DNA of 64,000 nt from Candidatus Spongiisociaceae bacterium (GTDB lineage: Bacteria > Actinomycetota > Acidimicrobiia > Spongiisociales > Spongiisociaceae), in contig OZ253564.1 in assembly GCA_965262915.1 (NCBI GenBank), positions 3,680,001-3,744,000 of the forward strand, read 5' to 3'. Below the pieces are notes generated by a model. That model searched no databases. It was not told the DNA's origin and saw only the letters and a program-made list of their open reading frames with translations. Shown piece after piece: positions 3,710 to 38,492 of this stretch (its first letter is position 1; the number at the start of each line of letters is the position of its first letter). The position numbers were made by a program, and so were the translations under genes.

Positions 3710-3795
3710 TTTCGCCTCGCTTTCGCTACTCGGATTCTCGGCCTGCAAGATACCCGGCGGCCCGGCGCAACTGCCAGGCGTCCACCCCCTCGGGT

Positions 3796-19193: not shown

Positions 19194-20792
19194 ATGTCGC
19201 GATATCTCATCGTGGGCAATCCGGTGGTCACGCTTGCCGAGGAGGCGTTCATCACCGATGGCGCGCTGATCGTCGAAGGCAAGAAGATCGTCGAGTCCGG
19301 ACCGCGGGCCGACCTCGAGTCCAAAGGCCCCTTTGACCGCATTCTCGGTTCTCCCGACCACTTCGTCATGCCCGGCTTCGTCGCCTCCCACTATCACTCC
19401 GAGTCGGCACTCGGTCCGGGACTCTGGGAGATGCTCTTCGAGCGGGCAAACATCTACGTGCATCCGGTTTTCAAGCCGATGGACGAGGAGATCATGTACA
19501 AGGCGATCCTCGTCACCCTCATGACCGCGGTTCGGGGAGGCATCACGACCACGGTCGATGCGTTCTACGGACGGCCCGGTCCGAAGAACTTCGGTATGAA
19601 CAACGCCTTGCAGGCGTACGAGGACCTTGGAATGCGAACCGCGCTCGGGATCACCCTGCGCGATGAGAACCTGTATGTCCACGAGGCCAACGAGGACTTC
19701 CTGAAACGACTCCCCGATCAGTTGGCCGAAGAGGTTCGCGACTCCCCTATGGGGTATGCCCTACCCGCGGACGATCTGATAGCCGCGTACCAGGATGCCG
19801 CCGGGACATGGGACCGCCGAGACGACCGGCTGCGCGTCCTGCTCGCTCCGGACTGGACCCCGGCCGTATCCGACGACCTGTACCGGCGCTGCCGCGCCAT
19901 CGCCACAGAATACGACACCGGGATCATGACCCATTGCCTGGAGACCCGATCCGAGATGCAGTACAACATAAGGCGTTTCGGTGTCACCGGCATGCAACGG
20001 CTGCACGACATCGGCCTCCTCGGGCCCGATGTGTCGCTCTCCCACTTCGTCTGGGCCACCGACCGCGACATCGAGATCCTGGCCGACAGTGGGGCTGTAG
20101 CTGCAAGCAACCCCGGCTCGAACCTGCGGCTGAGCACAGGGGTGTGCCGGGTACGCGACATTCTCGACGCCGGTGGAGGGCTGGCCTTCGGTACCGACGC
20201 CATCTCGTTCTCCGATCGCGACGACATGCTTCAGGAGGTTCGTCTTGGCGCCTACCTCCAGCGGCTACCCCGCGGCCCCGAACCGGAGCACGGTCGGCTG
20301 AACTCCGAGGCGCTCCTGCGCTCCGCGGCCACGTACGGGGCACGGGCCGCCCGCGCCGAGGATCGCATCGGCAGCCTGGCGGTAGGAAAGGACGCCGACC
20401 TGCTCATCCTCGACCGCAAGCGGGTCTTCGAGAGACCGGCGCGGTTCTACATAAGTCCGGTGCTCGACGTGATACTGGACCGGGCCGAGGGGACCGATAT
20501 CGAGACGGTGCTCATCGCCGGCAAGGTGGTTCTCGACAACGGCGAGATCACCACTCTGAACGAACAGAAGATCCGGGACGAGTACAACGAGGAGATAGCG
20601 AGGGGGCTGTTCGAGCTGGCCGAGCCTTGGGACCGGTGGGCCGAGTTGGCGTTCGAGGTCGAGCCGTACCTGTTCGACTTCTACCGCCCGTGGGCGGAGG
20701 AGCCGATGATCCCCGGCTACGAGTACAACACGACCACCGGCCCAATCGGCTTCCGAGGCGGGCACCGGATCGGAGGAGGTGACATCCGATGA
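19194..20792 (+). CDS. Deaminase-like amidohydrolase, paralog B
   Basis: PGFVASHYH, APDWTPA, THCLE, HFVWATD, NPGSNLRLSTG, FGTD. Confidence 0.85.
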   Translation: MSRYLIVGNPVVTLAEEAFITDGALIVEGKKIVESGPRADLESKGPFDRILGSPDHFVMPGFVASHYHSESALGPGLWEMLFERANIYVHPVFKPMDEEIMYKAILVTLMTAVRGGITTTVDAFYGRPGPKNFGMNNALQAYEDLGMRTALGITLRDENLYVHEANEDFLKRLPDQLAEEVRDSPMGYALPADDLIAAYQDAAGTWDRRDDRLRVLLAPDWTPAVSDDLYRRCRAIATEYDTGIMTHCLETRSEMQYNIRRFGVTGMQRLHDIGLLGPDVSLSHFVWATDRDIEILADSGAVAASNPGSNLRLSTGVCRVRDILDAGGGLAFGTDAISFSDRDDMLQEVRLGAYLQRLPRGPEPEHGRLNSEALLRSAATYGARAARAEDRIGSLAVGKDADLLILDRKRVFERPARFYISPVLDVILDRAEGTDIETVLIAGKVVLDNGEITTLNEQKIRDEYNEEIARGLFELAEPWDRWAELAFEVEPYLFDFYRPWAEEPMIPGYEYNTTTGPIGFRGGHRIGGGDIR

Positions 20793-21457
20793 CGAGCGTG
20801 TGCGATTCACTCCGGGACAGCTGCAAGGCGATCTGGCACGAACTCCACAACCATCCGTTCGTAGCGGAGATGGCGGCGGGCACCCTCCCGGAACGGAAGT
20901 TCGCCTTCTACATAGGCCAGAACATCGTGTTCCTCCGGGAACTGGCCAGAGCGATGGCCCTCGGAGTGGCCAAGGCTGATGACGAGGACACGATGCGGGA
21001 TTTCGCCGCCATCGTGAGCAGCATCGTCGACTTCGAGCTACCAAAGAACCGGCAATTGCTCTCCGAGGTCCGGCAGATGGTTCCGGGTGCGACCGAGGAG
21101 GTCACGATGGCGCCCGGAACGCTGGCCTATACACGGCACCTGCTGACCGTGGCCTACGAGGGAAGGGCCGCCGACATCATGGCCTCCCTCACCCCGTGCG
21201 CCTGGAGCTACGGGGAAATCGGCAAGGAACGGCTTCCCGACGCGCCCGACCATCAGGTGTACCGCACCTGGATCGAGTTCTTCGGCGGGCAGGAGTACTG
21301 GGACACACTCGAAGAGGTGAAGGCGAAGCTGGAACGGTTGTGCCAGGGGATGAGCGAGTCGGAGTTGGCCAGGATCCACGACATCTTCCGCACCAGCAGC
21401 CGCTTGGAGCAGATGTTCTGGGATATGGCCTACAACGAGAGCGCCTGGCCGGTCTGA
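20789..21457 (+). CDS. tenA: TenA / thiaminase II family protein (Cys-type, QN variant)
   Basis: 'HPFV..M..GTL', 'PCAWSYGEIG', 'Y..WI..F', 'LE..FWDMAY'; start overlaps the deaminase stop. Confidence 0.85.
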   Translation: MTSVCDSLRDSCKAIWHELHNHPFVAEMAAGTLPERKFAFYIGQNIVFLRELARAMALGVAKADDEDTMRDFAAIVSSIVDFELPKNRQLLSEVRQMVPGATEEVTMAPGTLAYTRHLLTVAYEGRAADIMASLTPCAWSYGEIGKERLPDAPDHQVYRTWIEFFGGQEYWDTLEEVKAKLERLCQGMSESELARIHDIFRTSSRLEQMFWDMAYNESAWPV

Positions 21458-21467
21458 GTCCCTCCGG

Positions 21468-23501
21468 ATGACCTGGACCGTCGCCATCGACATCGGTGGC
21501 ACCTTCACCGATGTGGTAGCGGACGACGAGGCCGGTCGGCGCCTCACCGCCAAGGTTCCCACCGTCCCCGCCGACCCGGCACTCGGGTTGTTGACCGCCC
21601 TCTCGGAGCTCGGCCGCCAGGGTTTGGCGTTCGACGACGTCGCTCTCGTCTTCCACGGAACCACCATCGCCACCAACGCGGTCATCAACGACAGGCTGGC
21701 CCGGGTCGTCCTCCTCACGACCAAGGGGTTCCGCGATATCCTGACCTACCGGTCGGGTTCCCGTCCCGACGCGTACGACCTTCGCCAGAGCCGTCCCAGG
21801 GAGTTCGTCCCGCGCGGTGACCGGATCGAGGTGGACGAAAGGATCAGCGGAACGGGCGTCGTCAAGGCCCTCCCTGCTTCGGAAATCAACCGGGCCGCCG
21901 ACGAGGTGATGTCAAGGAACCCCGAGGCGGTCGCCATCTCGTTCCTGTTCAGCTACCTGGACGACCGGCACGAACGGGCGATGGCCGATGCGCTCCGGGC
22001 AGCCCTCCCTGATCTGCCCGTTTCGCGTTCATCAGACGTGGCGAGAGAGTTCCGCGAGTATCCCCGCACTGTCACCACCGTCGTCAACGCCGGCCTCCGT
22101 CCGGTGGTACGTGATTACCTGGTGGGGGCCGAGCAAAGCATCCGGGAACTCGGGATACGCGGAACCTTCCTCGTCATGCAGTCGAACGGCGGCGCTGTAC
22201 CGACTGCCCGGGCCGAAGCCGAGGCCCACAAGCTGCTGGTCTCCGGGCCTGCCGCCGGCGTGGCCGGGGCGGTGGCTCTGGGGACAGCCACCGGGCGAAC
22301 CCACCTCCTGTCCCTCGACATCGGGGGGACATCGGCCGATGTCTGCCTCATCCGCGACGGGGAGGCGTCCGTAGTCCCGATGCGACACATCGACTCCCAC
22401 CCGATACTGTCGCCGTCTCTCGACATCCATTCCGCCGGCGCGGGGGGTGGGAGCATCGTCGAACTCGACCGGTCAGGCGCTCTGAAGGTCGGGCCCCGCA
22501 GCGCGGGGGCGGACCCCGGACCCGCTGCGTACGGGCTGGGAGGCGAGAACGCCACCCTCACCGACGCCCACCTCGTGGCGGGCACGCTCGGGGTACGGAC
22601 TGCCCTCGGCGGGAGCCTCACCCTCGATCGCGAAGCCGCCCTCGACGCGGTCGCCCGCGTGGGGAAACGGCTCGGTTTGAGCACCCTCGCCACGGCGGAA
22701 GGCGTGGTGGCTATCGCCGACGCCCACCTGGAAGCGGCGATCCGGAGGGTGTCGATCGACCGGGGAGAGGACCCTCGACGATATACGCTCGTGGCGTTCG
22801 GCGGAGCAGGACCGCTCCATGCCGGCCAGTTGATTCGGGATCTGGCCATGCCCGAAGCGGTCATCCCGCGTCACCCCGGATTGTTCTCGGCGGCCGGCCT
22901 GGTCGCCACCGATCTCAGGATCGACGACTCGGCCACCATACTGAGGATCATCGACCGGGTCTCGGTAGGTGAGATGGCTACCTGGTTCGAATCAACCGCG
23001 GAATCGCTGCGGATCCGGTTGCGCAAGGACGGTATCGACCACGACCGGATCCGCCTGCAGGCTTCCATCGACTGCCGGTACCAGGGCCAGGGCTTCGAGC
23101 TGAACGTCCCGGTGCTATCCACCGCACTCGACCCGGAGCAGGTGCGCCGTGACTTCCGCCGCGTTCACGACTCCCTATACGGCCACGTATCGGACGAACC
23201 CGTCGAAGCCGTCACGCTGCGTATGTCTGCTTTCGGCGCCCTACCCGTCGGGACGGCGCCTTCAATTGACGATGCCTCCCGTGCTCCGCAACCTGTTTCC
23301 ACCCGGACTATGAAGCTGCGGGAGATGCCGCGCCCCGCCGAAGCCCCCGTCTACTTCCGTGAAGATCTCGGCACCGGCGCCCGGCTGCCAGGACCCTGCA
23401 TCGTCGAGCAGCCGGACGCCACCACCGTGGTACTCACCGGCCAGGCAGCCCGGGTGGACGGGTACGGCAACCTGTGGATCCGGGAAGCGACCGATGCGTA
23501 G
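21468..23501 (+). CDS. Hydantoinase/oxoprolinase subunit A
   Basis: DIGGTFTD, HGTTIATNA, SGPAAG, DIGGTSAD, GAGGGSI, GPRSAGADPGPAAYG, FGGAGPLH. Confidence 0.9.
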   Translation: MTWTVAIDIGGTFTDVVADDEAGRRLTAKVPTVPADPALGLLTALSELGRQGLAFDDVALVFHGTTIATNAVINDRLARVVLLTTKGFRDILTYRSGSRPDAYDLRQSRPREFVPRGDRIEVDERISGTGVVKALPASEINRAADEVMSRNPEAVAISFLFSYLDDRHERAMADALRAALPDLPVSRSSDVAREFREYPRTVTTVVNAGLRPVVRDYLVGAEQSIRELGIRGTFLVMQSNGGAVPTARAEAEAHKLLVSGPAAGVAGAVALGTATGRTHLLSLDIGGTSADVCLIRDGEASVVPMRHIDSHPILSPSLDIHSAGAGGGSIVELDRSGALKVGPRSAGADPGPAAYGLGGENATLTDAHLVAGTLGVRTALGGSLTLDREAALDAVARVGKRLGLSTLATAEGVVAIADAHLEAAIRRVSIDRGEDPRRYTLVAFGGAGPLHAGQLIRDLAMPEAVIPRHPGLFSAAGLVATDLRIDDSATILRIIDRVSVGEMATWFESTAESLRIRLRKDGIDHDRIRLQASIDCRYQGQGFELNVPVLSTALDPEQVRRDFRRVHDSLYGHVSDEPVEAVTLRMSAFGALPVGTAPSIDDASRAPQPVSTRTMKLREMPRPAEAPVYFREDLGTGARLPGPCIVEQPDATTVVLTGQAARVDGYGNLWIREATDA

Positions 23502-25125
23502 CCGGAGACTCGATCCCGTGACCTACGAGTTGATCCACAGCCGGTTGCTCCACTCGGCCCGCGAGATGGCGGTGATCCTCAAGCGGTCCAGTCACAGCCC
23601 GATCATCAGGGAGATGGAGGACTTCAGCTGCGCGATATTCGCCCCGAGCGGAGAATCGGTGGCTCAGGACGAACGGATCCCCGCGCAATTAGGAGCGATG
23701 TCGCTGGCGGTCCAGACCTGCATCGCCGAGTTTCCGGAACCCGGAGACATACAGCCCGGAGACGCCTTCCTGCTCAACCATCCTTACATGGGATGCATGC
23801 ACACGCCGGACCTGAACCTGATCATGCCGGTGTTCGCCACAGGCGTGGTGGTGGGATGGGCCGGATCGACCGCCCATCACGTCGATCTGGGCGGTCCCAC
23901 ACCGGGCACCCTGGCGCCCCACCACCGGGAGCTCTATGCGGAGGGCCTGATCTTCCCGCCCATCAGGCTATACCGGCGGGGTGAGGAGAACCGGGACCTG
24001 TTCCGGATGATCGCCGCCAACGTACGGGACCCGAGAGGGCTGGTGGCGGACCTGCGAGCCCAGCACGCCTCGTGCCTGACCGGGACGAGAGCCCTGCTCC
24101 TCACGATGGAACGCTACGGAACCGACCAGGTTCTCGCCGCCTTCTCCGAAATCCTGGACCGGACCGCCCGGCGCACCCGGGCGGCTCTGGGGAACCTCGA
24201 AGACGGGCAGGCGGTCCGCACCGGTCACCTCGACGATGACGGCCTCGGGAGCGCTCCGGTACCGATCCGAGTGCGGCTCTCCAAGTCCGGCGAGGAGTTG
24301 GATGTGGACTTCACCGGGTCTTCAGCCCAGGTGGACGGCGCGCTCAACGTGCCATGGGCCAGTACCCGAGCCTGTGTTGCGTACCTGGTTCGTACGATGG
24401 TGGGCCTCGACATTCCCTCCAACGACGGCTTGCTGGCCCCCGTATCGATCACTTGCCCGCCGGGCACCATCCTCAATCCCCGTTTTCCTGCTGCGGTCTC
24501 CGTACGTCACAACACGTGCCAGGTGGTCGCCGACACCCTCATCCGGGCGGCCTCCGACCTGTGGCCGTCCCGGGCGGTGGCGAGCAGCAGCGTGACCTTC
24601 TTCGGCTTGCAGATCGGCAGCCGGTCTCCCCGGACCGGGGAGACCGCCGTGCTCATGGAGGTCGTAGGTGGCGGGACGGGCGCCCACGACCACAGCCGGG
24701 GTATCGACGGCGTCGACACCTACATGTCCAACGTGGCCCTCCTACCGGTGGAGGTGGCCGAGACCGAATACTCTGTGCGGATCCTCAAGAGCGAACTCGT
24801 CGGGAACTCCTCCGGTGAGGGACGGCTCTCCGGAGGACTCGGCATCCGCCGCGAGTACCAGATCCTGGACGTTCCGCAGATCGCCACGCTCTACTGCGAG
24901 CAGGCGATCGACGAGCACCGACCTCAGGGAGCCGAGGGAGGTGACGATGCCCGGCCCACCCGGGTCACGATCGTGGGACCCGACGGAGGGGTCCTCTCCA
25001 CAGCCTCCAAGATCTCGACCTCGTTGCCGCCCGGCTCGGTGATCAGGGTGGAGACCAGCGGCGGCGGCGGCTACGGACCGGCTTCGACCGCGGGCACGAC
25101 TTCGGAAACGGCCCGCTCCAGTTGA
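23494..25125 (+). CDS. Hydantoinase/oxoprolinase subunit B
   Basis: 'DPVTYELI', 'SPIIRE..DFSCA', 'NHPY.G..HTPD', 'HHVDLGG', 'GGGGYG'. Confidence 0.9.
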   Translation: MRSRRLDPVTYELIHSRLLHSAREMAVILKRSSHSPIIREMEDFSCAIFAPSGESVAQDERIPAQLGAMSLAVQTCIAEFPEPGDIQPGDAFLLNHPYMGCMHTPDLNLIMPVFATGVVVGWAGSTAHHVDLGGPTPGTLAPHHRELYAEGLIFPPIRLYRRGEENRDLFRMIAANVRDPRGLVADLRAQHASCLTGTRALLLTMERYGTDQVLAAFSEILDRTARRTRAALGNLEDGQAVRTGHLDDDGLGSAPVPIRVRLSKSGEELDVDFTGSSAQVDGALNVPWASTRACVAYLVRTMVGLDIPSNDGLLAPVSITCPPGTILNPRFPAAVSVRHNTCQVVADTLIRAASDLWPSRAVASSSVTFFGLQIGSRSPRTGETAVLMEVVGGGTGAHDHSRGIDGVDTYMSNVALLPVEVAETEYSVRILKSELVGNSSGEGRLSGGLGIRREYQILDVPQIATLYCEQAIDEHRPQGAEGGDDARPTRVTIVGPDGGVLSTASKISTSLPPGSVIRVETSGGGGYGPASTAGTTSETARSS

Positions 25126-25967
25126 GCGATGTGGTCGCCGGCCGACTCGATACCAGGCATGTAGCTGGTGAAGAAGGAAACGTCGGTGGCTCCTAGGGCG
25201 GCCATCCGGCGCACGTTCGAGATGATGCGGTCGGTGGGCTCCTCGGGCCCCAGACCCACCGAAACGTGCAGCCGGAGAGCGTCGGCGCTGCGGCCCGCCT
25301 CGGCAGCCAGGCGCCGGATCTCCTTCCACGAGGCGCCGATCTCATCGACTGTCTGGACCGGCCTCGACAGCCATCCCACGCCGTGCTCCACCACCCGCCG
25401 GAATACGGGTGGGGTGGTGCCGCCGAACCACAACGGCGGGTGCGGCTTGGTCACCGGCTTGGGTTCCATTCCCATGCCATCCACCACATAGAAGCGCCCG
25501 TCGAAGTCCACCCGGTCACGGGTCCAGAGCAGCTTCATGAGCTCGATTCCCTCGTCCATGCGCCGGCCCCGCTCGGTGAAGGGGACCTCCAGCGCGTCGT
25601 ATTCCTCCCGGTGCCATCCGATCCCGAGGCCGAGTTCGAGCCGCCCTCCGGAGAGGCTGTCGACCGCCGCCGCCTGCTTCGCCACCACCGCCGGTCCCCG
25701 CTGGGGCAGGATCACCACGGCAGAACGCAGGGCGATACGTCTGGTCACGCCTCCCAGATAACCGAGCGCCACCAGGATGTCGTGGTAGGGGGTGCGGGCC
25801 GGGTAATGCGCCCGCGGTGTCCCGTCCGCCGCCGGGTAGGCGAGCAGGACATGATCGATCAGGGTCAGGAAGTCGTAACCCTGGTCTTCTGCAGCCTGGC
25901 AGATGTCCCGCATGGCGGTGGGATCGTCGATGAGGAGAGAGTTGACGGCGCCTATCCCGTATTTCAT
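25071..25967 (-). CDS. LLM-class (luciferase-like) probably F420-dependent oxidoreductase
   Basis: 'DHV', 'AKQAA.VD.LSGGRLELGLGIGW..EEY', 'PKPV..PHPPLW.GG'. Confidence 0.85.
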   Translation of the reverse strand: MKYGIGAVNSLLIDDPTAMRDICQAAEDQGYDFLTLIDHVLLAYPAADGTPRAHYPARTPYHDILVALGYLGGVTRRIALRSAVVILPQRGPAVVAKQAAAVDSLSGGRLELGLGIGWHREEYDALEVPFTERGRRMDEGIELMKLLWTRDRVDFDGRFYVVDGMGMEPKPVTKPHPPLWFGGTTPPVFRRVVEHGVGWLSRPVQTVDEIGASWKEIRRLAAEAGRSADALRLHVSVGLGPEEPTDRIISNVRRMAALGATDVSFFTSYMPGIESAGDHIAQLERAVSEVVPAVEAGP

Positions 25968-26016
25968 CTTCACGGCTCCTTCATGATCGACATCCCGTAC
26001 CCTTAGGGAGGCTACC

Positions 26017-26116
26017 TTGTGGTCTGCCCGTGAAATGGCGGCGTGGTATGCGCCGGCAGCGAGGGGCGTCGGTGGCTGCCAGAGCATGGCAGGTTGTTTT
26101 GCGGACAGACCACTAG
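26017..26116 (+). mobile_element. MITE/REP-like element, family 1, copy a
   Basis: GTGGTCTGCCCGTGAAATGGC ... GTTGTTTTGCGGACAGACCAC-TAG; same ends at 42103 and 44190. Confidence 0.65.
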
Positions 26117-26131
26117 AGACGGAGGATCGGG

Positions 26132-27235
26132 ATGAGGACGAGAGCGGCGGTACTGCACGAGTTCAACACCCCATTGGTCGTCGAAGGGGTCGAACTCGAA
26201 GCGCCGAAAGCCAACGAGGTCCGGGTGAAGATGGTGTCGAGCGGGGTTTGCCACAGCGATCTGCACATCGTCCAAGGCCACATCCCGGTCAACCTGCCGA
26301 TCATCTGCGGCCACGAGGGCGCCGGCATCGTGACCGCGGTGGGACCCGGCCCCGCCACCGTACAGGTCGGCGACCGGGTAGTCCTCTCCTGGGTGTCGCC
26401 CTGCGGCAACTGCAATTACTGCGCTACGGGGAGCCCCGCATTGTGCATGACCGCGATCGGACCGTCCTACGAGGGACATCTCCACGACGGGACCAGCCGC
26501 TTCTCGGACCCCGCAGGCCGGGCGATCAGCCACCATCTGATGCTGTCCACCTTCTCTCAAGAGGTGACCGTGCCCGCTTCGGCGGCGATTCCGGTCCCCG
26601 ACGATGTTCCCCTCGAGCCGCTGGCGGTCATCGGATGTGCCGTCTCCACGGGGATCGGCGCGGTGGTGAACACCGGCAACGTGCAGCTGGGCGACAGCGT
26701 CGCGGTCATCGGATGCGGAGGTGTGGGCCTCAACGCCATCCAGGGAGCTCGCCTCCGGGGTGCGGGCAAGATCATCGGAGTGGACATCAACGAACAGAAG
26801 CTCGAAGCGGCCCGACGCTTCGGCGCTACCCACACGGTGAACGCCGCCGAGGACGACACCGTCGAGACCCTCATTGCCATGACGGGTGGATTGGGAGTGG
26901 ATCTGGCGGTGGAGGCGATCGGCCATCCACAAACCGTGGCTACCGCCGTGAAGTCGTTGCGTCGCGGTGGAACCGCGGTGCAGGTCGGGATCGCACCGTA
27001 CGGAACCGAGGTCTCGATCGATATGACCCTGCTGCTCGACGAGCGCAAACTCCTGGGTTGTTACTACGGCTCGCTACGGCCCGCGTTCGACATCCCCAGG
27101 TACGTAGAGCTGTACCGGGCGGGGAAGCTGCTCGTCGATGAGTTGATAACCGCCGAGATCGGGCAGGAAGACATCAATCGCGCCCTCAACCAGTTCGAGC
27201 GTGGAGAAGGTATCCGTAGTCTGGTCCGCTACTAG
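26132..27235 (+). CDS. Zn-dependent alcohol dehydrogenase (class III-like)
   Basis: GVCHSD, GHEGAG, CGNCNYC...C, GCGGVGL. Confidence 0.9.
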   Translation: MRTRAAVLHEFNTPLVVEGVELEAPKANEVRVKMVSSGVCHSDLHIVQGHIPVNLPIICGHEGAGIVTAVGPGPATVQVGDRVVLSWVSPCGNCNYCATGSPALCMTAIGPSYEGHLHDGTSRFSDPAGRAISHHLMLSTFSQEVTVPASAAIPVPDDVPLEPLAVIGCAVSTGIGAVVNTGNVQLGDSVAVIGCGGVGLNAIQGARLRGAGKIIGVDINEQKLEAARRFGATHTVNAAEDDTVETLIAMTGGLGVDLAVEAIGHPQTVATAVKSLRRGGTAVQVGIAPYGTEVSIDMTLLLDERKLLGCYYGSLRPAFDIPRYVELYRAGKLLVDELITAEIGQEDINRALNQFERGEGIRSLVRY

Positions 27236-28569: not shown

Positions 28570-28651
28570 GTCAGTCCTCCCGATTCAATCCGTGAACGGG
28601 CAACCTACCAGCTACGATCCACACCCACAGGTTGAGAGAAGGAGGACAAGC

Positions 28652-29314
28652 GTGGGCGAGCAGACATCGAGTCAGGCTCAGTGGTTCTGGGATAACACCG
28701 ACGACATATGGTCCGCGATCATAAGCCACCCTTTCCTCGTCGAACTCGAAGCAGGAACACTCCCCGACGAGGTACTCCGCTTCTACTTCGAGCAGAACCT
28801 CCAGTACGTCGACGCCGTCTACAGATGCCGGCTGGTTGCGGCCGCCAAGGCTCCCGACAAGGAAACCTTCGACCTGCTCACACGCGATTGGAACCTCGAG
28901 CCCAGCGACGAGCGGCAGGGAGACTTGCTCGTGAGTTTCGGAGGCGACCCTGACAACCTGCCGCCTATGGCACCGGCGTGCCGGGGTTACACGTATCACA
29001 TGTGGTACAACGCTCTCGACGGGCGCACCATCGATTGGCTGGCCAGCTTCGTCGCCTGCCCTTGGACATACGACCTGATCGGAGAACAAGTCTCGGGCAA
29101 CATCGGCGAGGAGCGCCGCGAGTCCTGGATGGAGTACTACGGCAGCAAGATCCACCATGACCTCATGGATGACTTCCGCGCTGCTGTCGACCGGCTGACG
29201 GTCGGCCTTGAACAGGATGACCTGGACGGGCTCCTCAAAAAGTGGCGCCTCGGCATGCGGTACGAATGGATGTTCTGGGACGACGCCTACCACATGCGGA
29301 GTTGGCCCGTCTGA
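28652..29314 (+). CDS. tenA: TenA family protein (Cys-type, QN variant), paralog 2
   Basis: 'HPFL.ELE.GTL', 'YFEQN', 'ACPWTY', 'YEWMFWDDAY'; GGAGG before GTG 28652. Confidence 0.8.
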   Translation: MGEQTSSQAQWFWDNTDDIWSAIISHPFLVELEAGTLPDEVLRFYFEQNLQYVDAVYRCRLVAAAKAPDKETFDLLTRDWNLEPSDERQGDLLVSFGGDPDNLPPMAPACRGYTYHMWYNALDGRTIDWLASFVACPWTYDLIGEQVSGNIGEERRESWMEYYGSKIHHDLMDDFRAAVDRLTVGLEQDDLDGLLKKWRLGMRYEWMFWDDAYHMRSWPV

Positions 29315-29450
29315 ACCGATCAAATCGCGTTTTCGCGTGACCCGCGACGTAGGCGCGGGTATCATCGATATCGCACGGAAGGCAACCCGGCCCTAGCGAC
29401 CCCTACGAATTAGGGCCCGAGCCTCGAAGCGCCCCTACGAGGGAGGCCCA

Positions 29451-31358
29451 ATGATCTGGAAGAGGTTCTGCTACCCAATCACATTGCTGGTGGCTTTCGC
29501 AATCGTTGCCGCCGCGTGCGGCGCCGACGACGAGCCGGCCACCACAGCCGCACCCGCCACCACAGCCGCACCCGCCACCACAGCGGCGGCGACCACGGCC
29601 GAGTCCGCCGGAACGGAGGCTCCCACCACCACAGCGGCGGCGACCACGGCCGAGTCCGCCGGAACGGAGGCTCCCACCACCACAGCGGCGGCGACCGCCA
29701 CCACACCACCGACCACCCAGCCACCGGAGGTCGAGGAGGGTGACGTGATGCGGGCCCCGGACCGCGTGCAGGACGCCGAGACGGTCGTGATCGCGTGGAC
29801 GGGCTATTACAACAGTCTCGATCCGCCCGACAGCCTCGTGAACTTCAACCGTGAGGCCAGCGCCGCCATGTATGACCGCCTCCTCACGTACTCGCTCACC
29901 GAGCGCGAGGACGGAACGCTCGTATGGGACGGCCTCGGGGTGGCGCCAGGGCTCGCCGAGAGCTGGGCGATCGACGGTGGATCGGTTACGTACACGATCC
30001 GCCAGGGCGTGACGTTCAACAAGACCGGCAACCCCTTGACGGCCCACGACATCTGGTACTCCTTCGTGCGGGCTGTCGAGGTGCCCGGGTTCGGGACTTT
30101 CAACTCGGGCCTCGCCGGTATCTTCGAACCATCCCGCCAGCTCACGGTGATCGATGACCACACGATCCGCTTCGACCACGAGTTGACCGATGGGACCCCC
30201 TTCCTGCTGAAGGCTTCGTTACCGAGCATGCGGTTCCCGATCTTCGGGATCGTGGACTCTGTCGAGGTGAAGGCCCGCGCCACGGACGAGGATCCGTGGG
30301 GCCACGAGTGGCTCAAGGAGAACCCGGAGGGCTCAGGCCCTTACGTCATCGAATCGGCGACACCCGGTACCGAGTTGATCCTGAGCCGTGTCCAGGGCCA
30401 TTGGACCGAGGGTGACCAGAGCCAACTCGGGCGGGCCTACAACGGCTTCGACCGAGTGATATACCGGACGCTCAACAGCCCGGCGGACATCACGGCGCTC
30501 ATGTTGGGGGGCGAGGTCGACGTGGCTTTCGCCCTGGGAACCAGGGAACTCACCGCCTTGGGCGAGGCGGGCTTCACGATCGTGAACGCCGAGATTCCCG
30601 ATATCTGGCGCCTCGACCTCCCGGTGACGACGCCGCCCTTCGACAACCCGGCAGTGCGTCAGGCGATCGCGCACGCGGTGCCCTACGACACGATCGTGGA
30701 GAACGTATTCTCGAACGCGACGCGCGCCTACTCCATCGTCAACCCGGCTTCGCCCTCGTTCATCCCGGAGTGGGACTACGACACGGACCTTGACAAGGCC
30801 CGCGACCTGCTGGCGGAGGCCGGCCTGGCAGACGGGTTCGCCACCGAGCTCTTCTACAACTCGGCGCGCCAGGAGTGGGAGGACATCGCCCTCTTCCTCC
30901 AGGCCAGCCTCGGAGAGGTGGGGATCGAGCTCACCCTCCGTCCGCGACCTGCGACGCAGTTCCAGGAAGAGACGACGGCCCGTTACGCCGACGACACGGT
31001 GATGCCCGGCATCCAGATGCGCAACGGGTTGATATGGCTGGACGACGCTGATCCCAACGTCGGTCTGTGGCTCGTGACCCGCGGGTTCCCGGGCCCGGTC
31101 GGTGTGGGCGGGTTCTCGAACGCCAGCCACTACTCGAACATCGAGGTGGACACCCTGCACTTCGAGAACCGGTTCAACCCGGATCTCGAAGCACGGGCCG
31201 AGGCCTACCGCGAGGTCCAGCGGATCGGAGCGCGCGACCTTCCGATGATCCCGCTGGCGGTGCGCGGGTTCCCGGGCGCCGTCCATCCGGCGATCACCGG
31301 CGTGGCGTTCACGGCCGACCCGCATCTACGGTCGTACCTGTTGAGGCCGGCCGGGTGA
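29451..31358 (+). CDS. ABC substrate-binding lipoprotein, family 5 (DppA/OppA-like)
   Basis: Lipobox AAACG, Thr/Ala linker, 'PGLAESW', 'GSGPY', 'VRQAIAHA'. Confidence 0.9.
   Translation: MIWKRFCYPITLLVAFAIVAAACGADDEPATTAAPATTAAPATTAAATTAESAGTEAPTTTAAATTAESAGTEAPTTTAAATATTPPTTQPPEVEEGDVMRAPDRVQDAETVVIAWTGYYNSLDPPDSLVNFNREASAAMYDRLLTYSLTEREDGTLVWDGLGVAPGLAESWAIDGGSVTYTIRQGVTFNKTGNPLTAHDIWYSFVRAVEVPGFGTFNSGLAGIFEPSRQLTVIDDHTIRFDHELTDGTPFLLKASLPSMRFPIFGIVDSVEVKARATDEDPWGHEWLKENPEGSGPYVIESATPGTELILSRVQGHWTEGDQSQLGRAYNGFDRVIYRTLNSPADITALMLGGEVDVAFALGTRELTALGEAGFTIVNAEIPDIWRLDLPVTTPPFDNPAVRQAIAHAVPYDTIVENVFSNATRAYSIVNPASPSFIPEWDYDTDLDKARDLLAEAGLADGFATELFYNSARQEWEDIALFLQASLGEVGIELTLRPRPATQFQEETTARYADDTVMPGIQMRNGLIWLDDADPNVGLWLVTRGFPGPVGVGGFSNASHYSNIEVDTLHFENRFNPDLEARAEAYREVQRIGARDLPMIPLAVRGFPGAVHPAITGVAFTADPHLRSYLLRPAG
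29538..29700 (+). repeat. Intragenic tandem repeats (18-bp PATTAA units, then 51-bp x2) encoding the SBP linker
   Basis: GCCACCACAGCCGCACCC repeated, then a 51-bp unit encoding TTAAATTAESAGTEAPT twice. Confidence 0.85.
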
Positions 31359-31378
31359 CACGAGCGGCTTTCGAGCCG

Positions 31379-31417
31379 AACGACCGCGGCGTGATCACTG
31401 ATCGCGCCGCGGTCGTT
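31379..31417 (+). terminator. Strong hairpin after SBP gene (mRNA stabiliser or partial terminator)
   Basis: AACGACCGCGGCGTGATCA-c-TGATCGCGCCGCGGTCGTT. Confidence 0.6.
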
Positions 31418-31468
31418 TCGTTCACGTATTCCACTTCCGCGCCGCCTCCGACGGAGGCCTGATCGGGG

Positions 31469-32485
31469 ATGGACTCCGGCCTGTCCCGCCAGCTGGTCAT
31501 CAGGCTCCTGTTGGTGCTCCCCGTCATCTTCGGGGTGGTCACCCTGACCTTCCTGGTGTCACGGGTGTTCGCGCCCGATCCGGTAGCGCTCTATATCCCT
31601 CCGCAGGCCGATGAGGAGCTCCGCCAAAAGATCAGGGCCGAGTTGGGCTTCGACAAGTCGATCCCCGATCAGTACGCGGTCTTCCTCGCCGACCTCGCCC
31701 AGGGTGACTTGGGTGAATCGACGATCACGGGGCGGCCCGTCACGAGCGACCTGTGGGACCGTCTCCCCGCGACGATGGAGCTGGCCCTCTTGTCGCTCAC
31801 CTTCGCCGTCGTGGTCGGTGTCCCGCTGGGGGTACTGGCCGGCGCGAAGCGTGACGGCGCGGTGGACTTCTCCGTGAGAGGCATCACCCTGATCGGAATG
31901 GCGTTGCCGTCGTTCTGGCTCGGCCTCGTGCTCATCCTGATCTTCTTCGTGTATCTCGGTTGGTTACCCGGGCCGGTCGGCCGGCTTCCGCTCGGCGCCG
32001 CGGCACCCGACAAGATCACCGGGCTCTACACCCTCGACAGCCTCATTCAGGGCGACTTATCGATGTGGTGGGAATCGTTCCGCCACCTGATACTGCCGGG
32101 CGTCACGCTCGGGGTGGTGATCATGGCGCCGATCACGAGGGTGGCGCGCGCCTCGATGGTCGAGGTCATGCGCTCCGAGTACATCCGCACGCCCAAGGCG
32201 TTGGGCATCGGCAAGCAGACCATCTACTTCCGCTACGCCCTCAAGAACGCCCTATTGCCGATCATCACCATGATCGGAACGATCGTAGGCTTCGTCTTCA
32301 CCGGCGCGGTGCTCGTGGAGGCGGTCTTCAACTGGCCGGGCATGGGCAAGTACGGGCTGGACGCCATTGTCAAGTCCGATTTCACCGCGCTCCAGGGCTT
32401 TGTCGTGATCGCATCGGTTTCCTACATCGTGGCGTTCTTCCTGGTCGATGTCGTGTACATGCTGATAGACCCGAGGACGAGATGA
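31469..32485 (+). CDS. ABC permease (DppB-like)
   Basis: 'RLPATMELA', 'PSFWLG', EAA-loop region 'RASMVEV...EYIRT..ALG', 'VEAVFNWPGMG'. Confidence 0.9.
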   Translation: MDSGLSRQLVIRLLLVLPVIFGVVTLTFLVSRVFAPDPVALYIPPQADEELRQKIRAELGFDKSIPDQYAVFLADLAQGDLGESTITGRPVTSDLWDRLPATMELALLSLTFAVVVGVPLGVLAGAKRDGAVDFSVRGITLIGMALPSFWLGLVLILIFFVYLGWLPGPVGRLPLGAAAPDKITGLYTLDSLIQGDLSMWWESFRHLILPGVTLGVVIMAPITRVARASMVEVMRSEYIRTPKALGIGKQTIYFRYALKNALLPIITMIGTIVGFVFTGAVLVEAVFNWPGMGKYGLDAIVKSDFTALQGFVVIASVSYIVAFFLVDVVYMLIDPRTR

Positions 32486-32495
32486 GGAGGATGTC

Positions 32496-33401
32496 ATGAT
32501 CGACATGACGCGGGACCTGCTCCCGGAGGGCGATTCCTTGGATGCCATCGCCCCCGGGCGCACCAGGTGGGGGAAGATCCGTTACGTCTTCGGCCAAAGC
32601 AAGAGCCTGACGGCCGGGACGATCATCGTCGGCATATTCATCCTGATCGCGTTGCTCGCCAAGTTCATCACCACGTACGATCCCGGCGCCGTACTCACCG
32701 GCGCCCCGTTGTCCGGCCTCAGCGGCGAGCATTGGTTCGGCACCGACAAGGTGGGCTCGGACGTGTTCTCCAAGACGATTGCCGCCACCGCGCTCGATCT
32801 GCGGATCACGGTGTCGGCGGTGGTTACAGCCCTGGTGGCCGGTGTCGTGCTCGGTACTGTTGCCGGCTACTACGCCGGGATAGTCGACCTCGTCCTGCTG
32901 CGCCTCCTCGAGATCCTCCAGTCGATCCCGACCTTGCTGCTGGCGATGATGGTGGTGGTGGCCATCGGGCCCGGGGAGGCGAACGTGGTCGTGGTCATGG
33001 CCTTCATCGGCATGCCCTACTACGCGCGCCTGGTGCGGGCCGAGATCCTCACCAAGCGCACCTGGGAGTTCGCGGAGGCGGCTCGAATGGTGGGTGGATC
33101 GGCGATGCGGGTAGCCTTCCGCCATCTGCTCCCGAACAGCCTCTCGCCGGTACTGGCGTACGCGTCGGTCAACGCGGCGTGGGTGGTGCTGGTGACGGCC
33201 GCGCTCGGGTTCCTCGGCATCGGCATCGAACCGGGCACCGCCGAGTGGGGATCGATGATCGCCCGGGGGCAGACGGAGATCATCACCGGCGAGTGGTGGG
33301 TCTCCGTGTTTCCGGGGCTGTTCGTCCTTATCCTCACTGCGGGTTTCTACCTGCTCGGCGACGGCGTACGCGACGTGATGGACCCGAGGTCACGGAAGTG
33401 A
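32496..33401 (+). CDS. ABC permease (DppC-like)
   Basis: 'HWFGTD..G.DVFS', 'FAEAAR..G', 'HLLPN', 'EWGSMI'. Confidence 0.9.
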   Translation: MIDMTRDLLPEGDSLDAIAPGRTRWGKIRYVFGQSKSLTAGTIIVGIFILIALLAKFITTYDPGAVLTGAPLSGLSGEHWFGTDKVGSDVFSKTIAATALDLRITVSAVVTALVAGVVLGTVAGYYAGIVDLVLLRLLEILQSIPTLLLAMMVVVAIGPGEANVVVVMAFIGMPYYARLVRAEILTKRTWEFAEAARMVGGSAMRVAFRHLLPNSLSPVLAYASVNAAWVVLVTAALGFLGIGIEPGTAEWGSMIARGQTEIITGEWWVSVFPGLFVLILTAGFYLLGDGVRDVMDPRSRK

Positions 33402-33417
33402 AGGCAGGGAGGTTCTG

Positions 33418-34446
33418 ATGGCCGGGAACCTCGTCGAGATCCGCGACCTGCAGGGCTACTTCGACACGATCGGTGGGGAGGTCCATGCTCTCAACGGTGT
33501 CAGCTTCACCATCGAGGAGGGCAAGGTGACCGGCCTCGTCGGCGAGACCGGCTCCGGTAAGACGATGACCTCGCTCAACATCCCCCGCCTCATGCCGGAC
33601 AACTTCCGCTACATCTCGGGCCAGGTGCTGTTCCGCGGTAAAGACGTTCTCACCTGGCCGGAGGAGCGAATGGAACTCTTCCGCGGTGACGGTGTGGGTA
33701 TCGCCTTCCAGGATCCCAAGGCCGCCCTCAACCCGGTGTTCACGGTCGGGGAGCAACTCGGCCGCGCACTACGAACCCACACCGAGGCCACCAAGGGCGA
33801 GGCCAGGCAGGCGGCGCTCCGGATACTGGAACGGGTCAGGATCACCGACCCACGGCGCACCATCCGCCAGTACGCACACGAACTGAGCGGTGGTATGGCG
33901 CAGCGGGTCATGATCGCGCTGGCGGTGATCCACCCCCCCAAACTTCTGATCCTGGACGAGCCGACCACCGGGCTCGATGTCACGGTTCAGGCGGAGATCA
34001 TCTCCATGCTCCGGGACCTGGTCGAGTCCATGGGGCTTACGGTGCTGCTGATCACCCACGATCTCGGGGTGGTGGGCGAGTTATGTGACAACGTGGCGGT
34101 GATGTACGCCGGTCGGACCATGGAGTTCGGTGACATCAGCCAGATTTTCGAGCGACCCGCCAACCCGTACACGAGGGAACTCCTCCGATCTACCGAGAGC
34201 GTCGAGGGCGGGGTGGGGGACCTGTACAGCATCCGCGGCGCCCCGCCCGACCTCCGGAACCTGCCTCAGGGGTGTTTCTTCCAGGATCGTTGCCCGTCAG
34301 CAGAGGACATCTGCCGGACGGTTCCACCTGTGGTCGAAGTGGAGCCGGGCCACGTTTCGATGTGCCACTTCGCCGAGCGCTATCACTCGATGCCGGGACC
34401 TCTCCACATCACCAGGGGCGCCGACGCAGAAGGAGGCCGGGAGTGA
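33418..34446 (+). CDS. ABC ATPase (DppD-like)
   Basis: GETGSGKT, LSGGMAQR, DEPTT, C-terminal Cys cluster. Confidence 0.9.
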   Translation: MAGNLVEIRDLQGYFDTIGGEVHALNGVSFTIEEGKVTGLVGETGSGKTMTSLNIPRLMPDNFRYISGQVLFRGKDVLTWPEERMELFRGDGVGIAFQDPKAALNPVFTVGEQLGRALRTHTEATKGEARQAALRILERVRITDPRRTIRQYAHELSGGMAQRVMIALAVIHPPKLLILDEPTTGLDVTVQAEIISMLRDLVESMGLTVLLITHDLGVVGELCDNVAVMYAGRTMEFGDISQIFERPANPYTRELLRSTESVEGGVGDLYSIRGAPPDLRNLPQGCFFQDRCPSAEDICRTVPPVVEVEPGHVSMCHFAERYHSMPGPLHITRGADAEGGRE

Positions 34447-35273
34447 CGCCCGGCAGCAACGGAACTCTTCTCACGGTTCGAGGCCTCACCAAGCACTTCC
34501 ACCGGGGTGTCTGGCCCCGCAAGCAAACCATCGTGGCCGTCGACAATGTCGACCTCCATGTGACCAGAGGGGAGAGCGTCGGGCTGGTCGGCGAAAGCGG
34601 ATCCGGCAAGACGACCACGGCCCGCAGCATCCTGCGGCTGGTCGACCCGACCTCAGGTGAGATCGACTTCGACGGTATCCGGGTTGATCAGACCCCCAGA
34701 TACAGAGTACGCCGCCTCTACCGGAACATGCAGATGGTCTTCCAGGATCCGAACTCGTCGCTGAATCCGCGCATGACGGTGCGCGATATCGTCACCGAGC
34801 CCCTGAAGCTCCACCTGAACATGTCGGGTCGGGAACAGGAGGAACGGGCCAATGAGATAATGTCCCTGGTGGGTCTGCGCGGCTTCCACCTCGATCGATA
34901 TCCCGGCCAGCTCAGCGGAGGCCAGCGCCAGCGGGTCGGTATCGGTCGGGCAATAGCCACCCACCCCAAGCTGGTCTTCCTCGACGAGCCCACCTCCTCG
35001 CTCGACGTGTCGGTGCGGGGTCAGGTGATGCAGCTGCTGGTCGATCTGCAGCGGGAGATGAACATGTCCTACGTGCTCATCAGCCACGACCTCGGAGTGG
35101 TGCGGCAGCTCAGCAGGCGGGTGATGGTCATGTTCGACGGTCGTATCGTGGAGGAAGGCCCCACCCGGCAGGTGTTCGAGCATCCCCGAGACGACTACAC
35201 CAAGAGGCTGCTGGCGGCCATCCCGTCCATGGATGGCTACCGCCGCAGGAGACAGCAGGGAGGAACCAGGTGA
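34443..35273 (+). CDS. ABC ATPase (DppF-like)
   Basis: [21 protein letters not shown]. Confidence 0.9.
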
Positions 35274-36235
35274 GCCGTGTCGTAGACGCCCACATCCACA
35301 TCTTCCGGGAACCTTCCTGGAGTCCCGAATCGCAGAAGGCCATGCCCACCTCCTGGGTGAACCAGGTTCGGTGGTTCGACATGGACGCCGACGACGCCAA
35401 GCGCCGCTACCGGGAGTCGGTGGACGCCTGCTGGGATCCCGACGGCGCCAAGACCATCGCCCGCATGGACGAGGCCGGCGTGGATGTCTCGGTGACCATG
35501 CCGATGGACCGGGGGCTCCTCACCGGCGACGAGGGCGTCGTGCCCTTCGAGGAGAAGAACGAGGGCTACTACGAGCTCACCCGGATGTGGCCGGGACGCA
35601 TCTATTCCTTCTGCGGAGTTGATCCCCGCCGTCCGAACGCCGCGAAGTTCCTCGAGAAGGCGATCGTCGACTGGGGATTCCTGGGTCTCAAGCTGTACCC
35701 CACAACCGGGTTCTACCCCGACGACGAGATCGTCCATCCCCTTTACGAAGTCTGCCGTGAGTTCGACGTTCCGGTCCTGCTGCACCAGGGGCATTCAGGC
35801 GGCCGTCTCAAGAGCAAGTACGGTCACCCGATGTACGTGGACTCGGCGGCGGCGGACTTCCCCGAGGTACGTTTCATCCTCGGCCACGGCGCCCGTTTCG
35901 AAACCTGGGCGAAGGAAGCCATGAGCGTGGCGATCTACAAGACCAACGTCCACCTCGAGATCAGCCTCTGGCAGCACTGGGCCAGCGTCGACGACCTGGT
36001 GAGGACCTTCGTCTGGATCAGGGACCGGATCGGCATCGACAGGTTGCTGTTCGGCAGCGACATGACCAACGTCGAGGTGTCCATGACGTTGAAGGAATGG
36101 GTGGACGTGATCCGTATGCTGCCGGAGTGGGCCAAACAACTCGGGTTCCGCCTCAGTCAAGAGGAGATCAACCTTGTCCTCGGTGGCAATACCGAGCGCG
36201 TGTACCGGATCCCACCGGTCGAGGAATCCGAGTAA
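35270..36235 (+). CDS. Amidohydrolase_2 family, close paralog of 12125/15425
   Basis: DAHIH, '[11 protein letters not shown]', 'PVLLHQGHS', 'LFGSDM'; collinear with copies 1 and 2 but with ordinary high-GC codons. Confidence 0.85.
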
Positions 36236-36272
36236 CCGGTATGAGATCGTCCCAAGCGACCAAGGAGACCCG

Positions 36273-36920
36273 ATGAGCTGGACCCACTACATGTACGAGC
36301 AGACCAAGGACATGTGGGAAAGGATCTACGAACACCCATTCCTGAGAGACTTGGCGGCCGGAACTCTCTCCGACGAGCGCCTCGCGTTCTATTTCGAGCA
36401 GAACACCCACTACATCAACAACGTGGTGAAGTGCCGCTCGATCGCGACGGCCAAGGCCCACAACAACGAGATACGGGACTTCTTCCTGAGCCGCACGGCG
36501 ATGGTGGTGGACGAGCTCTACCACCAAGAGGACATGTTGCGCCGGGTCGGCGGCCAGGCCGGCGCCCGGATCGCCCCCACCTGCCATGCCTACACCCGCC
36601 ACATCCTCAACCTGGTGTGGACGAAGGACCCGGTCGAGTACCTCGGGTCGTTCATGCCGTGCCCGTGGACGTATGACGAGATCGGGATCCAGTTGCGCAG
36701 CGCCGATCTCCAAGGCGCGCCCGCCGAGTGGTGGGAGTTCTACATGAGCGTGGAACACAACGAACTGGTGGCCAACTACCGCGCATTCGTGGACAAGTAC
36801 TCCGAGGGCCTATCGGATGAGCGGCGGCAGCAGATGCTGGACAACTTCATCATCAGCACCAACTACGAGTACCGGTTCTGGGACATGGCCTACAACCTCG
36901 AACAATGGCCCCTCGGCTAG
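36273..36920 (+). CDS. tenA: TenA family protein (Cys-type, QN variant), paralog 3
   Basis: 'HPFL.DL..GTL', 'YFEQN', 'MPCPWTYDEIG', 'YEYRFWDMAY'. Confidence 0.85.
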   Translation: MSWTHYMYEQTKDMWERIYEHPFLRDLAAGTLSDERLAFYFEQNTHYINNVVKCRSIATAKAHNNEIRDFFLSRTAMVVDELYHQEDMLRRVGGQAGARIAPTCHAYTRHILNLVWTKDPVEYLGSFMPCPWTYDEIGIQLRSADLQGAPAEWWEFYMSVEHNELVANYRAFVDKYSEGLSDERRQQMLDNFIISTNYEYRFWDMAYNLEQWPLG

Positions 36921-38490: not shown

Positions 38491-38492
38491 AG

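Follow-up and report, generated by a model that had tools for sequence, protein, structure and literature searches.

A TenA subfamily with Asn at the Asp44 site, putatively acting on 4-oxo pyrimidines, in a Candidatus Spongiisociaceae bacterium

Three genes of the TenA (thiaminase II) family lie in a 64,000-nucleotide stretch of a Candidatus Spongiisociaceae genome (contig OZ253564.1, positions 3,680,001 to 3,744,000), which was analyzed as a whole and is called the window here. Canonical TenA carries a Gln-Asp (QD) motif whose Asp, Asp44 in Bacillus subtilis TenA, belongs to the active site, and the three window proteins (TenA-1, TenA-2 and TenA-3) read Gln-Asn (QN) instead. Are these ordinary salvage enzymes with a neutral substitution, or members of a subfamily that acts on other rings? 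A preliminary description had seen in them possible oxythiaminases coupled to deaminases. Our analysis gives roughly an even chance to the reading that the QN TenAs form a distinct, Cys-containing subfamily of conserved catabolic gene sets, and are C5-methylene hydrolases probably tuned to 4-oxo rings.

Active site, rarity and relationships of the QN proteins

The source genome is a single 5.06-Mb contig and is 96% complete. A search of the whole contig with PF03070 (Pfam gathering score, 22 bits) returned the three window genes, a fourth copy at C1:992355-993002 and nothing else, with no QD TenA among them. Paralog 4 reads YFEQN (codon AAC) with PCPL as its Cys motif, is 62% identical to TenA-3 and lies directly after another Amidohydro_1-like open reading frame (ORF). 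Pairwise identity among the four paralogs is 28–62%. TenA-1, TenA-2 and TenA-3 scored 143.3, 59 and 95.6 bits with PF03070, and 168.9, 76.7 and 117.8 bits with TIGR04306, the NCBIfam thiaminase II equivalog with a cut-off of 130 bits. The likely start of TenA-2, GTG 28652, was deduced from homologues (longest ORF, 28412-29314). The real start of TenA-3 is ATG 36273 (ORF, 36174-36920), which is preceded by a Shine-Dalgarno-like AAGGAG; the 215-aa public gene call is 100% identical.

As had been described, Q-N is present in all three translations, with AAC as the Asn codon, and the nucleophile Cys and the C-terminal Glu are kept (Table 1). With phmmer against PDB chains, the Asn of all three proteins aligned, gap-free nearby, with the Asp of QD in B. 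subtilis TenA (1tyh/1yaf), H. pylori TenA (2rd3/3ibx) or a Sulfolobus protein (2qzc), at E-values of 2.6e-33, 4.8e-23 and 1.2e-13 for the three window TenAs. The Cys of PCAW/ACPW/PCPW aligned with Cys135 and the Glu of E..FWD with Glu205 of B. subtilis TenA. TenA-3 was modeled with AlphaFold from 11 sequences; the model reached a predicted local distance difference test (pLDDT) value of 95.2 and has the all-helical heme-oxygenase-like fold. Its best PDB match was B. subtilis TenA 2qcx (template modeling (TM) score 0.94; root mean square deviation 1.6 Å; 218 columns), and TenA structures in general gave TM scores of 0.87–0.94. The equivalence of the Asn to Asp44, on which the preliminary description depended, is borne out by these alignments and by the match of the model to 2qcx.

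The other residues of the site are the usual ones. Tyr114, Cys137, Tyr141, Glu207 and Phe210 (TenA-1 numbering; ring-stacking or catalytic) are equally conserved in the QN and QD sets, and both sets have an invariant Glu in E..FW and an invariant Tyr in AYT (Glu205 and Tyr112 equivalents). Several pocket-region columns differ between the two sets. All four paralogs have Asn at the Asp44 site and lack the Asp of QD that marks TenA_C. According to the accessible part of PMC5623701, the Asp44 equivalent binds amino groups of hydroxymethylpyrimidine phosphate, D44A loses much activity and C135A inactivates TenA. The earlier statement that Asp44 contacts the 4-aminopyrimidine agrees with that report, and its support is to this extent second-hand.

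QN is rare. A phmmer search with TenA-1 against 1.84 billion representatives gave 2874 matches at E ≤ 0.001. The best 150 of them comprised 121 QD, 22 QN, 3 ED and 1 QT proteins and 3 fragments without the column, so that QN made up 22 of the 147 top relatives covering the column, in a sample skewed in favour of the query. As an unbiased census, 301 genomes sampled evenly across the phylum were searched with PF03070, and 100 matched at E ≤ 1e-10 (a tally that includes eight genomes marked unpublished). The census regions were 30 given loci and 80 more; three loci from unpublished genomes, other unpublished matches, ∼20 matches weaker than E 1e-17 and 11 unlisted matches were left out. A hidden Markov model of TenA-1 relatives (E ≤ 1e-8) called 99 unique TenA ORFs in them: 86 QD (62 with Cys and Glu), 2 QN and 11 others (QY, 4; EQ, 2; ED, 2; QE, 1; gapped, 2). 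Eight of the 30 given loci (L085-L091 and L095), top scorers with the Pfam model, were unmatched by this model and are probably a PqqC-type branch. Both genomes with a QN ORF also hold a separate canonical QD/Cys/Glu TenA elsewhere. The census figure of 2/99 makes QN a rare motif in the TenA family as a whole, as the preliminary description had assumed for ordinary TenAs.

Many genomes of the phylum were also seen to carry tandem TenA pairs, a QD..C..E copy beside a Cys-less QD..A/L/V..E copy (among others L096, L112, L118, L123, L125, L129, L130, L142, L150, L153 and L156).

A search with TenA-3 returned 54 proteins at E ≤ 1e-10. Matches of its own clade were all QN down to ∼27–30% identity, with a single exception (P0165), and ∼10 distant canonical matches read QDY. 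All these relatives are publicly named 'thiaminase/transcriptional activator TenA', and the ESM Atlas names are generic TenA and nothing more. In a FastTree phylogeny of 142 rows, TenA-2, TenA-3, paralog 4 and four representatives formed clade A, all QN, with a support of 100. TenA-1 fell into clade B (support 97) with several QN representatives. Clade C, all QN (RYFEQN), and three single QN rows (P0136, P0081 and P0090) lay elsewhere in the tree. This topology requires 6–8 changes between Asp and Asn. When clades A, B and C were held together in IQ-TREE (67 rows), the log-likelihood was 5.8 above that of the free quick tree, and the approximately unbiased (AU) test gave p-AU 0.64. A single origin of the main QN lineage (A, B and C) is thus not rejected in this test and may even be favoured. 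The AU test weakens the 6–8 separate QN origins of the FastTree topology, and independent origins of A, B and C are not claimed.

A second position distinguishes the two sets. Position 87 of TenA-1 (window ∼21047–21049) corresponds in the alignment to the His within the B. subtilis TenA segment 'emalHref'. This column holds His in 85/117 QD rows and 0/24 QN rows, which have Asn (13), Gln (7) or Tyr/Phe/Met (4). In two of the QN singles, the Asp44 site and position 87 both differ from the QD sister rows.

These data suggest that QN is nearly fixed in one coherent subfamily (clades A, B and C) and distinct from drift, a conclusion that sequence comparison supports well. The preliminary description had taken the same change in three divergent paralogs as the sign of a distinct subfamily. 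The subfamily stands, since the QN clade is deep and QN co-varies with the loss of His87, but the paralogs are not three independent cases, because TenA-2, TenA-3 and paralog 4 belong to one all-QN clade.

Gene neighbourhoods and thiamine context

The two close gene pairs first noticed in the window were found as described. The ATG of TenA-1 overlaps the TGA of the amidohydrolase gene Amidohydro_1 B (ATGA, 20789-20792), an arrangement of translational coupling, and the stop codon of TenA-3 (36918-36920) lies 14 nt ahead of the GTG (36935) that opens Amidohydro_1 C.

Neighbours in other genomes were detected by phmmer with the window's own proteins against stop-to-stop ORFs. A scan with the clade-A alignment gave 79 loci, and the close relatives were metagenome-assembled genomes (MAGs) of Acidimicrobiia. 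Genes of the TenA-3 type (L006-L013 and L019) have Amidohydro_2 upstream and Amidohydro_1 directly downstream, and those of the paralog-4 type (L016-L018 and L020) have an overlapping Amidohydro_1 upstream. At L015, Amidohydro_1 lies 10 bp downstream of TenA and an Amidohydro_2-like ORF overlaps the TenA frame; an SBP5 gene is upstream of TenA there and at L021. More distant QN loci gave a similar picture. In a Dehalococcoidia MAG (L022, 46% identity) an alcohol dehydrogenase (ADH) and a metallo-beta-lactamase-fold gene are adjacent to TenA and Amidohydro_1 is 922 bp off. Amidohydro_1 is 4 bp downstream of TenA in an Actinomycetota MAG (L049) and ∼1 kb from it in two Streptosporangiaceae MAGs (L073 and L076). 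By Pfam, the order at L076 is methylmalonyl-CoA-mutase-like gene, CoA-transferase III, luciferase-like oxidoreductase (LLM), TenA(QN), Zn-ADH, Amidohydro_1, Amidohydro_2 and PadR, and this Amidohydro_1 scores 636 bits to the window gene at 2360-3748.

The ∼55 QD loci of the same scan were mostly without Amidohydro_1; in a SAR202 group it was ∼3 kb off on the other strand, and at L059 (QD, clade-B-like) phmmer found no amidohydrolase or ADH neighbour. In the census, Amidohydro_1 lay within 3 kb of 2/2 QN ORFs vs. 0/86 QD ORFs.

Clade C was followed in metagenomes. The scan gave 80 loci at 60–91% identity, from soil metagenomes, with 81 TenA ORFs, of which 79 were QN by pattern and two were unmatched by it; the counts are over the 79. 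Among loci with a flank of 400 bp or more, 57/57 have a Zn-ADH that starts no more than 50 bp downstream of TenA. Where the flank is 3 kb or longer, 24/24 loci have an Amidohydro_1 within 3 kb. Two Amidohydro_1 genes, each with more than 300 bits to those of the window, lie within 4.5 kb in 13/17. LLM is found within 1.5 kb upstream in 22/38. The most complete order given by Pfam (L196) is CoA-transferase III, M20 peptidase, LLM, GntR/FCD, TenA(QN), Zn-ADH, aldehyde dehydrogenase (ALDH), Amidohydro_1, Amidohydro_1 and, on the other strand, Amidohydro_2. Orthologues of Amidohydro_1 B (∼600 bits) are present in clade-C operons. The coupling of the QN subfamily to deaminase-type amidohydrolases is well supported by these loci. 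Taken together, the conserved sets combine one or two TRZ/ATZ-type Amidohydro_1 genes (deaminase/dechlorinase group) with a Zn-ADH, next to TenA in the soil clade, and with Amidohydro_2, LLM and transporter genes.

Two further arrangements of QN genes were observed. At L021:6917-8320 an SBP_bac_5 gene is followed directly by two tandem QN TenAs with 4 bp between them, and no Amidohydro_1 was found within 7 kb of these TenAs. At L249:10924-11418 (soil, clade C) a second QN TenA (YFIQN) follows a B-type Amidohydro_1 by 4 bp, mirroring the pairing of Amidohydro_1 B and TenA-1 in the window.

The thiamine context was looked for in the whole genome. Neither ThiC, ThiE/TMP-TENI nor ThiN was found in it, no thiamine pyrophosphate (TPP) riboswitch was found in genome or window, and the window gave no Rfam match at the gathering score. 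A ThiG search of the genome returned marginal fragments only, and the one Phos_pyr_kin gene is at 4.9 Mb, far from the window. Among 40 relatives, TenA genes were present in 7/7 genomes of the same genus and 2/8 of the sister genus, each time as the same multi-copy set, and 15/17 other genomes of the family were without TenA (one match in this table is from an unpublished genome). Thiamine salvage is unlikely, because ThiC, ThiE, ThiN and the TPP riboswitch were not found in the genome. No enzyme was found in it to build thiamine from released hydroxymethylpyrimidine (HMP); the organism seemingly cannot assemble its own thiamine and may rely on imported vitamin.

Proposed function and alternatives

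Since the QN TenAs are a rare coherent subfamily in conserved breakdown operons, they probably degrade modified pyrimidines rather than serve vitamin B1 salvage. The chemistry of TenA would be kept: the Cys would add to C6 of the pyrimidine, the C5-methylene group would leave and water would give a 5-hydroxymethyl product. Co-encoded deaminases would make substrate rings with a 4-oxo (N3-H/C4=O) edge, and the Asn, through its carboxamide, would pair with N3-H and O4, as Asn177 of thymidylate synthase does. The 5-hydroxymethyl product would be oxidized by the ADH, whose gene in clade C is translationally coupled to TenA, then by the ALDH seen at L196, and the carboxyl might be removed by Amidohydro_2, a family that includes decarboxylases, before ring breakdown. 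The number of paralogs and the separate hydrolase partner of each suggest several related substrates. Oxythiaminase, the label first proposed, is plausible for such enzymes.

Known systems resemble parts of this scheme. Fungal thymidine salvage oxidizes 5-hydroxymethyluracil to 5-formyl- and 5-carboxyuracil, on which isoorotate decarboxylase, a member of the Amidohydro_2 family, then acts. Oxidation of a 5-hydroxymethyl group followed by removal of the carboxyl by Amidohydro_2 fits the set of TenA, ADH, ALDH and Amidohydro_2. In contrast, the fungal oxidation is by a dioxygenase, and the window Amidohydro_2 is without close similarity to a characterized decarboxylase. Thymidylate synthase and dCMP hydroxymethylase (Asn177/Asp179) share with the QN TenAs, as proposed, a Cys attack at pyrimidine C6, and in them one residue at the 3,4 edge decides between 4-oxo and 4-amino; in thymidylate synthase, Asn177-to-Asp switches the preference from dUMP to dCMP (accessible part of PMC8670742). 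Their fold and overall reaction are unrelated to those of TenA, and the likeness is a mechanistic analogy only.

With TenA_C thiaminase II (EC 3.5.99.2; B. subtilis 1yaf/1yak/2qcx) the QN proteins have in common the fold, PF03070, the Cys135 and Glu205 equivalents, the ring aromatics and, presumably, the reaction (attack of the Cys on C6 with departure of the C5-methylene substituent). They differ in having Asn for Asp44 and Gln or Asn for His87, in their catabolic operons, which hold ADH and deaminase-type amidohydrolases and have no thiamine genes or TPP riboswitch nearby, and, for TenA-2 and TenA-3, in scoring under the equivalog cut-off. We file them apart from thiaminase II, because two defining features of the salvage enzyme, Asp44 and the thiamine context, are lacking. 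The Cys-less TenA_E proteins and LysR2-type regulators share the Pfam family and the fold, but are without the Cys or the catalytic residues that are kept here.

A wider version of the proposal can be put forward tentatively. The QN clade would be the entry enzyme of a widespread, hitherto undescribed bacterial pathway that mineralizes 5-(X-methyl)pyrimidines, the Asn shifting the TenA chemistry from rings with a 4-amino group to those with a 4-oxo group. The route would be completed by the co-encoded deaminases and ADH/ALDH, by a decarboxylase of the Amidohydro_2 family and by ring-opening enzymes, and sponge-symbiont Acidimicrobiia would have expanded it to four parallel modules. Its substrates might be the thiamine pyrimidine, deaminated or antivitamin analogues of it, or bases of the 5-aminomethyl- or 5-hydroxymethyl-uracil type.

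Several observations weigh against 4-oxo tuning or against the subfamily and coupling on which it is built. P0165, which is 62% identical to TenA-3 and a relative of paralog 4 too, reads FSFEQD, the sole QD of the close clade; it may be a natural reversal. A group of ∼10 QD rows is nested in clade B. Because of these rows and P0165, Asp and Asn are seen to interconvert within the clade. The clades were named only after the first tree had been inspected. In an independent-pairs test of QN vs. the loss of His87, 3.7 of 5 pairs went the same way and none the opposite (p ∼0.125), so that the co-variation falls short of significance because there are too few independent pairs. The way in which neighbours were detected favours relatives of the window's genes. 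The earlier expectation that QN TenAs neighbour amidohydrolases holds in Acidimicrobiia, Dehalococcoidia, Streptosporangiaceae and soil metagenomes, unlike for the QD proteins of the census, but not for TenA-2, whose nearest annotated Amidohydro_1 ends at 20792, ∼7.9 kb off, nor for L014 and L021, which are without a close Amidohydro_1. Three further points, namely the score of TenA-1 over the thiaminase II cut-off, the soil operon order and the pairing options of Asn, favour the alternative considered next.

The QN TenAs might be catabolic thiaminase II or aminopyrimidine aminohydrolases that act on 4-aminopyrimidines (thiamine, aminomethyl-HMP or analogues), with the Asn tuning binding or pKa; we regard this as possible, though rather unlikely. 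TenA would release HMP, ADH and ALDH would convert it to the 5-carboxylate, Amidohydro_2 would decarboxylate it and Amidohydro_1 would deaminate last. The order TenA, ADH, (ALDH) and then amidohydrolases fits a TenA acting first on a 4-amino substrate equally well, and by chemical reasoning an unprotonated 4-aminopyrimidine could be bound by Asn as well, with a hydrogen bond accepted from the 4-NH2 and one donated to N3. Older work on bacterial thiamine breakdown reportedly described 2-methyl-4-amino-5-pyrimidinecarboxylic acid, which was not found in the literature searched. Against this stand the Asp kept in 86 of 99 census TenAs and the large loss of activity in D44A (accessible part of PMC5623701). 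The clade-wide Asn together with the loss of His87 suggests altered recognition, and the thymidylate synthase precedent ties Asn to 4-oxo rings (accessible part of PMC8670742).

It is improbable that the QN TenAs are hydrolases of another heterocycle (pterin/folate-type, pyridoxamine-type or a hypermodified nucleobase) with a leaving group on a ring-attached methylene, in which case the amidohydrolases would be pterin- or purine-type deaminases. The broad matches of Amidohydro_1 (8-oxoguanine, guanine and adenosine-type deaminases among them), the divergence of the four paralogs and the differing pocket-region columns are in keeping with it. The (near-)invariance of Tyr114, Cys137, Tyr141, Glu207 and Phe210 in the QN proteins and, as modeled, a fold nearly identical to that of HMP-bound TenA are not.

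Ordinary thiamine-salvage TenAs with a neutral Asp-to-Asn change are a very improbable reading: the change takes a single base (GAC/AAC) and the public names all say thiaminase or TenA, but the thiamine genes and riboswitch named above were not found, the two QN ORFs among the 99 of the census are never in a thiamine context, and QN is conserved across a deep clade in catabolic surroundings. Non-enzymatic regulators like LysR2 of the lysolipin cluster are scarcely credible, since all four paralogs and the clade as a whole retain the active-site Cys, Glu and Tyr and since GntR or PadR regulators are encoded in the operons themselves, although TenA-family proteins with regulatory roles are on record (accessible part of PMC12817078) and 9wdg (LysR2) was a weak PDB match.

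The literature searched, with supplements and most subscription papers outside the search, held no description of a QN TenA or of an oxythiamine-cleaving TenA. Nor was a genetically defined pathway by which bacteria degrade the thiamine pyrimidine or related 5-substituted pyrimidines found in it (including the accessible parts of PMC4412061 and PMC12345177), and on bacterial isoorotate-decarboxylase routes nothing relevant was found, supplements again lying outside the search. TenA is annotated everywhere as salvage thiaminase II, and a rare subfamily is now set apart from it by QN and the absence of His87. Its operon spans soil metagenomes, Streptosporangiaceae, Dehalococcoidia and sponge-associated Acidimicrobiia. 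If Asn or Asp sets the choice between 4-oxo and 4-amino rings, TenA would be a second, independent case of the thymidylate synthase rule in an unrelated fold, and the switch, if true, would offer a simple means to correct many database annotations. The proposed 4-oxo reading bears on the turnover of vitamin B1 and antivitamins in soils and sponge holobionts.

Other features of the window

The genes around the TenAs are collected in Table 1. The window is dense in hydrolases, with four Amidohydro_1 genes of the TRZ/ATZ group, four Amidohydro_2, an amidase, two metallo-beta-lactamase-fold genes and one of the phosphotriesterase family. It also holds two short-chain dehydrogenases, CoA-ligase and carboxyl-transferase genes, and two complete peptide/opine-type ABC importers with parts of a third. 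The stretch 42266-52081, which includes a xylose-isomerase-like TIM-barrel gene too, extends the catabolic character of the region.

Table 1. Positions of the TenA genes and other features in the window
Feature	Position	Strand	Remarks
Amidohydro_1 0, TRZ/ATZ group	2360..3748	-	orthologue (∼600–645 bits) of the first clade-C operon amidohydrolase
Fourth Amidohydro_1, TRZ/ATZ type	10527-12122		
Amidohydro_2	17980..18981	-	
Amidohydro_1 B, TRZ/ATZ deaminase-chlorohydrolase group	19065..20792	+	true start uncertain; coupled to TenA-1
TenA-1	20789..21457	+	222 aa; YIGQN, N45 = AAC at 20921; PCAW; EQMFWD
Hydantoinase/oxoprolinase A + B	21468..25125	+	caprolactamase-like, far under equivalog cut-offs; directly after TenA-1
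LLM	25071..26087	-	F420-dependent; TIGR03619, cut-off passed
Zn-dependent alcohol dehydrogenase	26132..27235	+	
Short-chain dehydrogenase	27808..28569	-	divergent from TenA-2
TenA-2	28652..29314	+	∼220 aa; YFEQN, AAC at 28796; ACPW; YEWMFWD
ABC importer (SBP_bac_5, two permeases, two ATPases)	29451..35273	+	after TenA-2
Amidohydro_2 (PF04909)	35270..36235	+	directly before TenA-3
TenA-3	36273..36920	+	215 aa; YFEQN, AAC at 36402; PCPW; YEYRFWD
Amidohydro_1 C, TRZ/ATZ group	36935..38490	+	longest ORF from 36817
Metallo-beta-lactamase-fold hydrolase	38424..39290	+	after Amidohydro_1 C
Phosphotriesterase-family gene	42266-43180	-	
Second complete SBP_bac_5 ABC importer	46808-52081		

The Amidohydro_1 genes of the window score 140–202 bits with PF01979. 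Their best NCBIfam and PDB matches are 5′-deoxyadenosine, methylthioadenosine/S-adenosylhomocysteine (MTA/SAH), 8-oxoguanine and guanine deaminases and atrazine chlorohydrolase, at scores all far under the equivalog cut-offs, which place them in the broad deaminase/chlorohydrolase group. PDB searches returned no characterized close relative of the Amidohydro_1 or Amidohydro_2 neighbours, and for this reason no substrate can be read from them. A plus-strand ORF at 17722-19026 (434 aa, no Pfam match) was considered as a conserved unknown gene and rejected as an antisense shadow of the Amidohydro_2 gene at 17980-18981; its 'homologues' elsewhere lay opposite Amidohydro_2 genes, and it was dropped from the later neighbour counts.

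Sequencing runs matching the window included one recorded as RNA (X3) and two guessed to be RNA, and the parts they leave uncovered are uninformative. Sponge metatranscriptome contigs of run X3 (share 0.05) match 28714-29100, inside TenA-2, and 36045-36302, at the junction of Amidohydro_2 and TenA-3, with 19 letters differing in each and a likeness of ∼93–95% at the two places. These contigs come from a relative (90–95% likeness) and could reflect DNA carry-over; they are not counted as evidence of expression.

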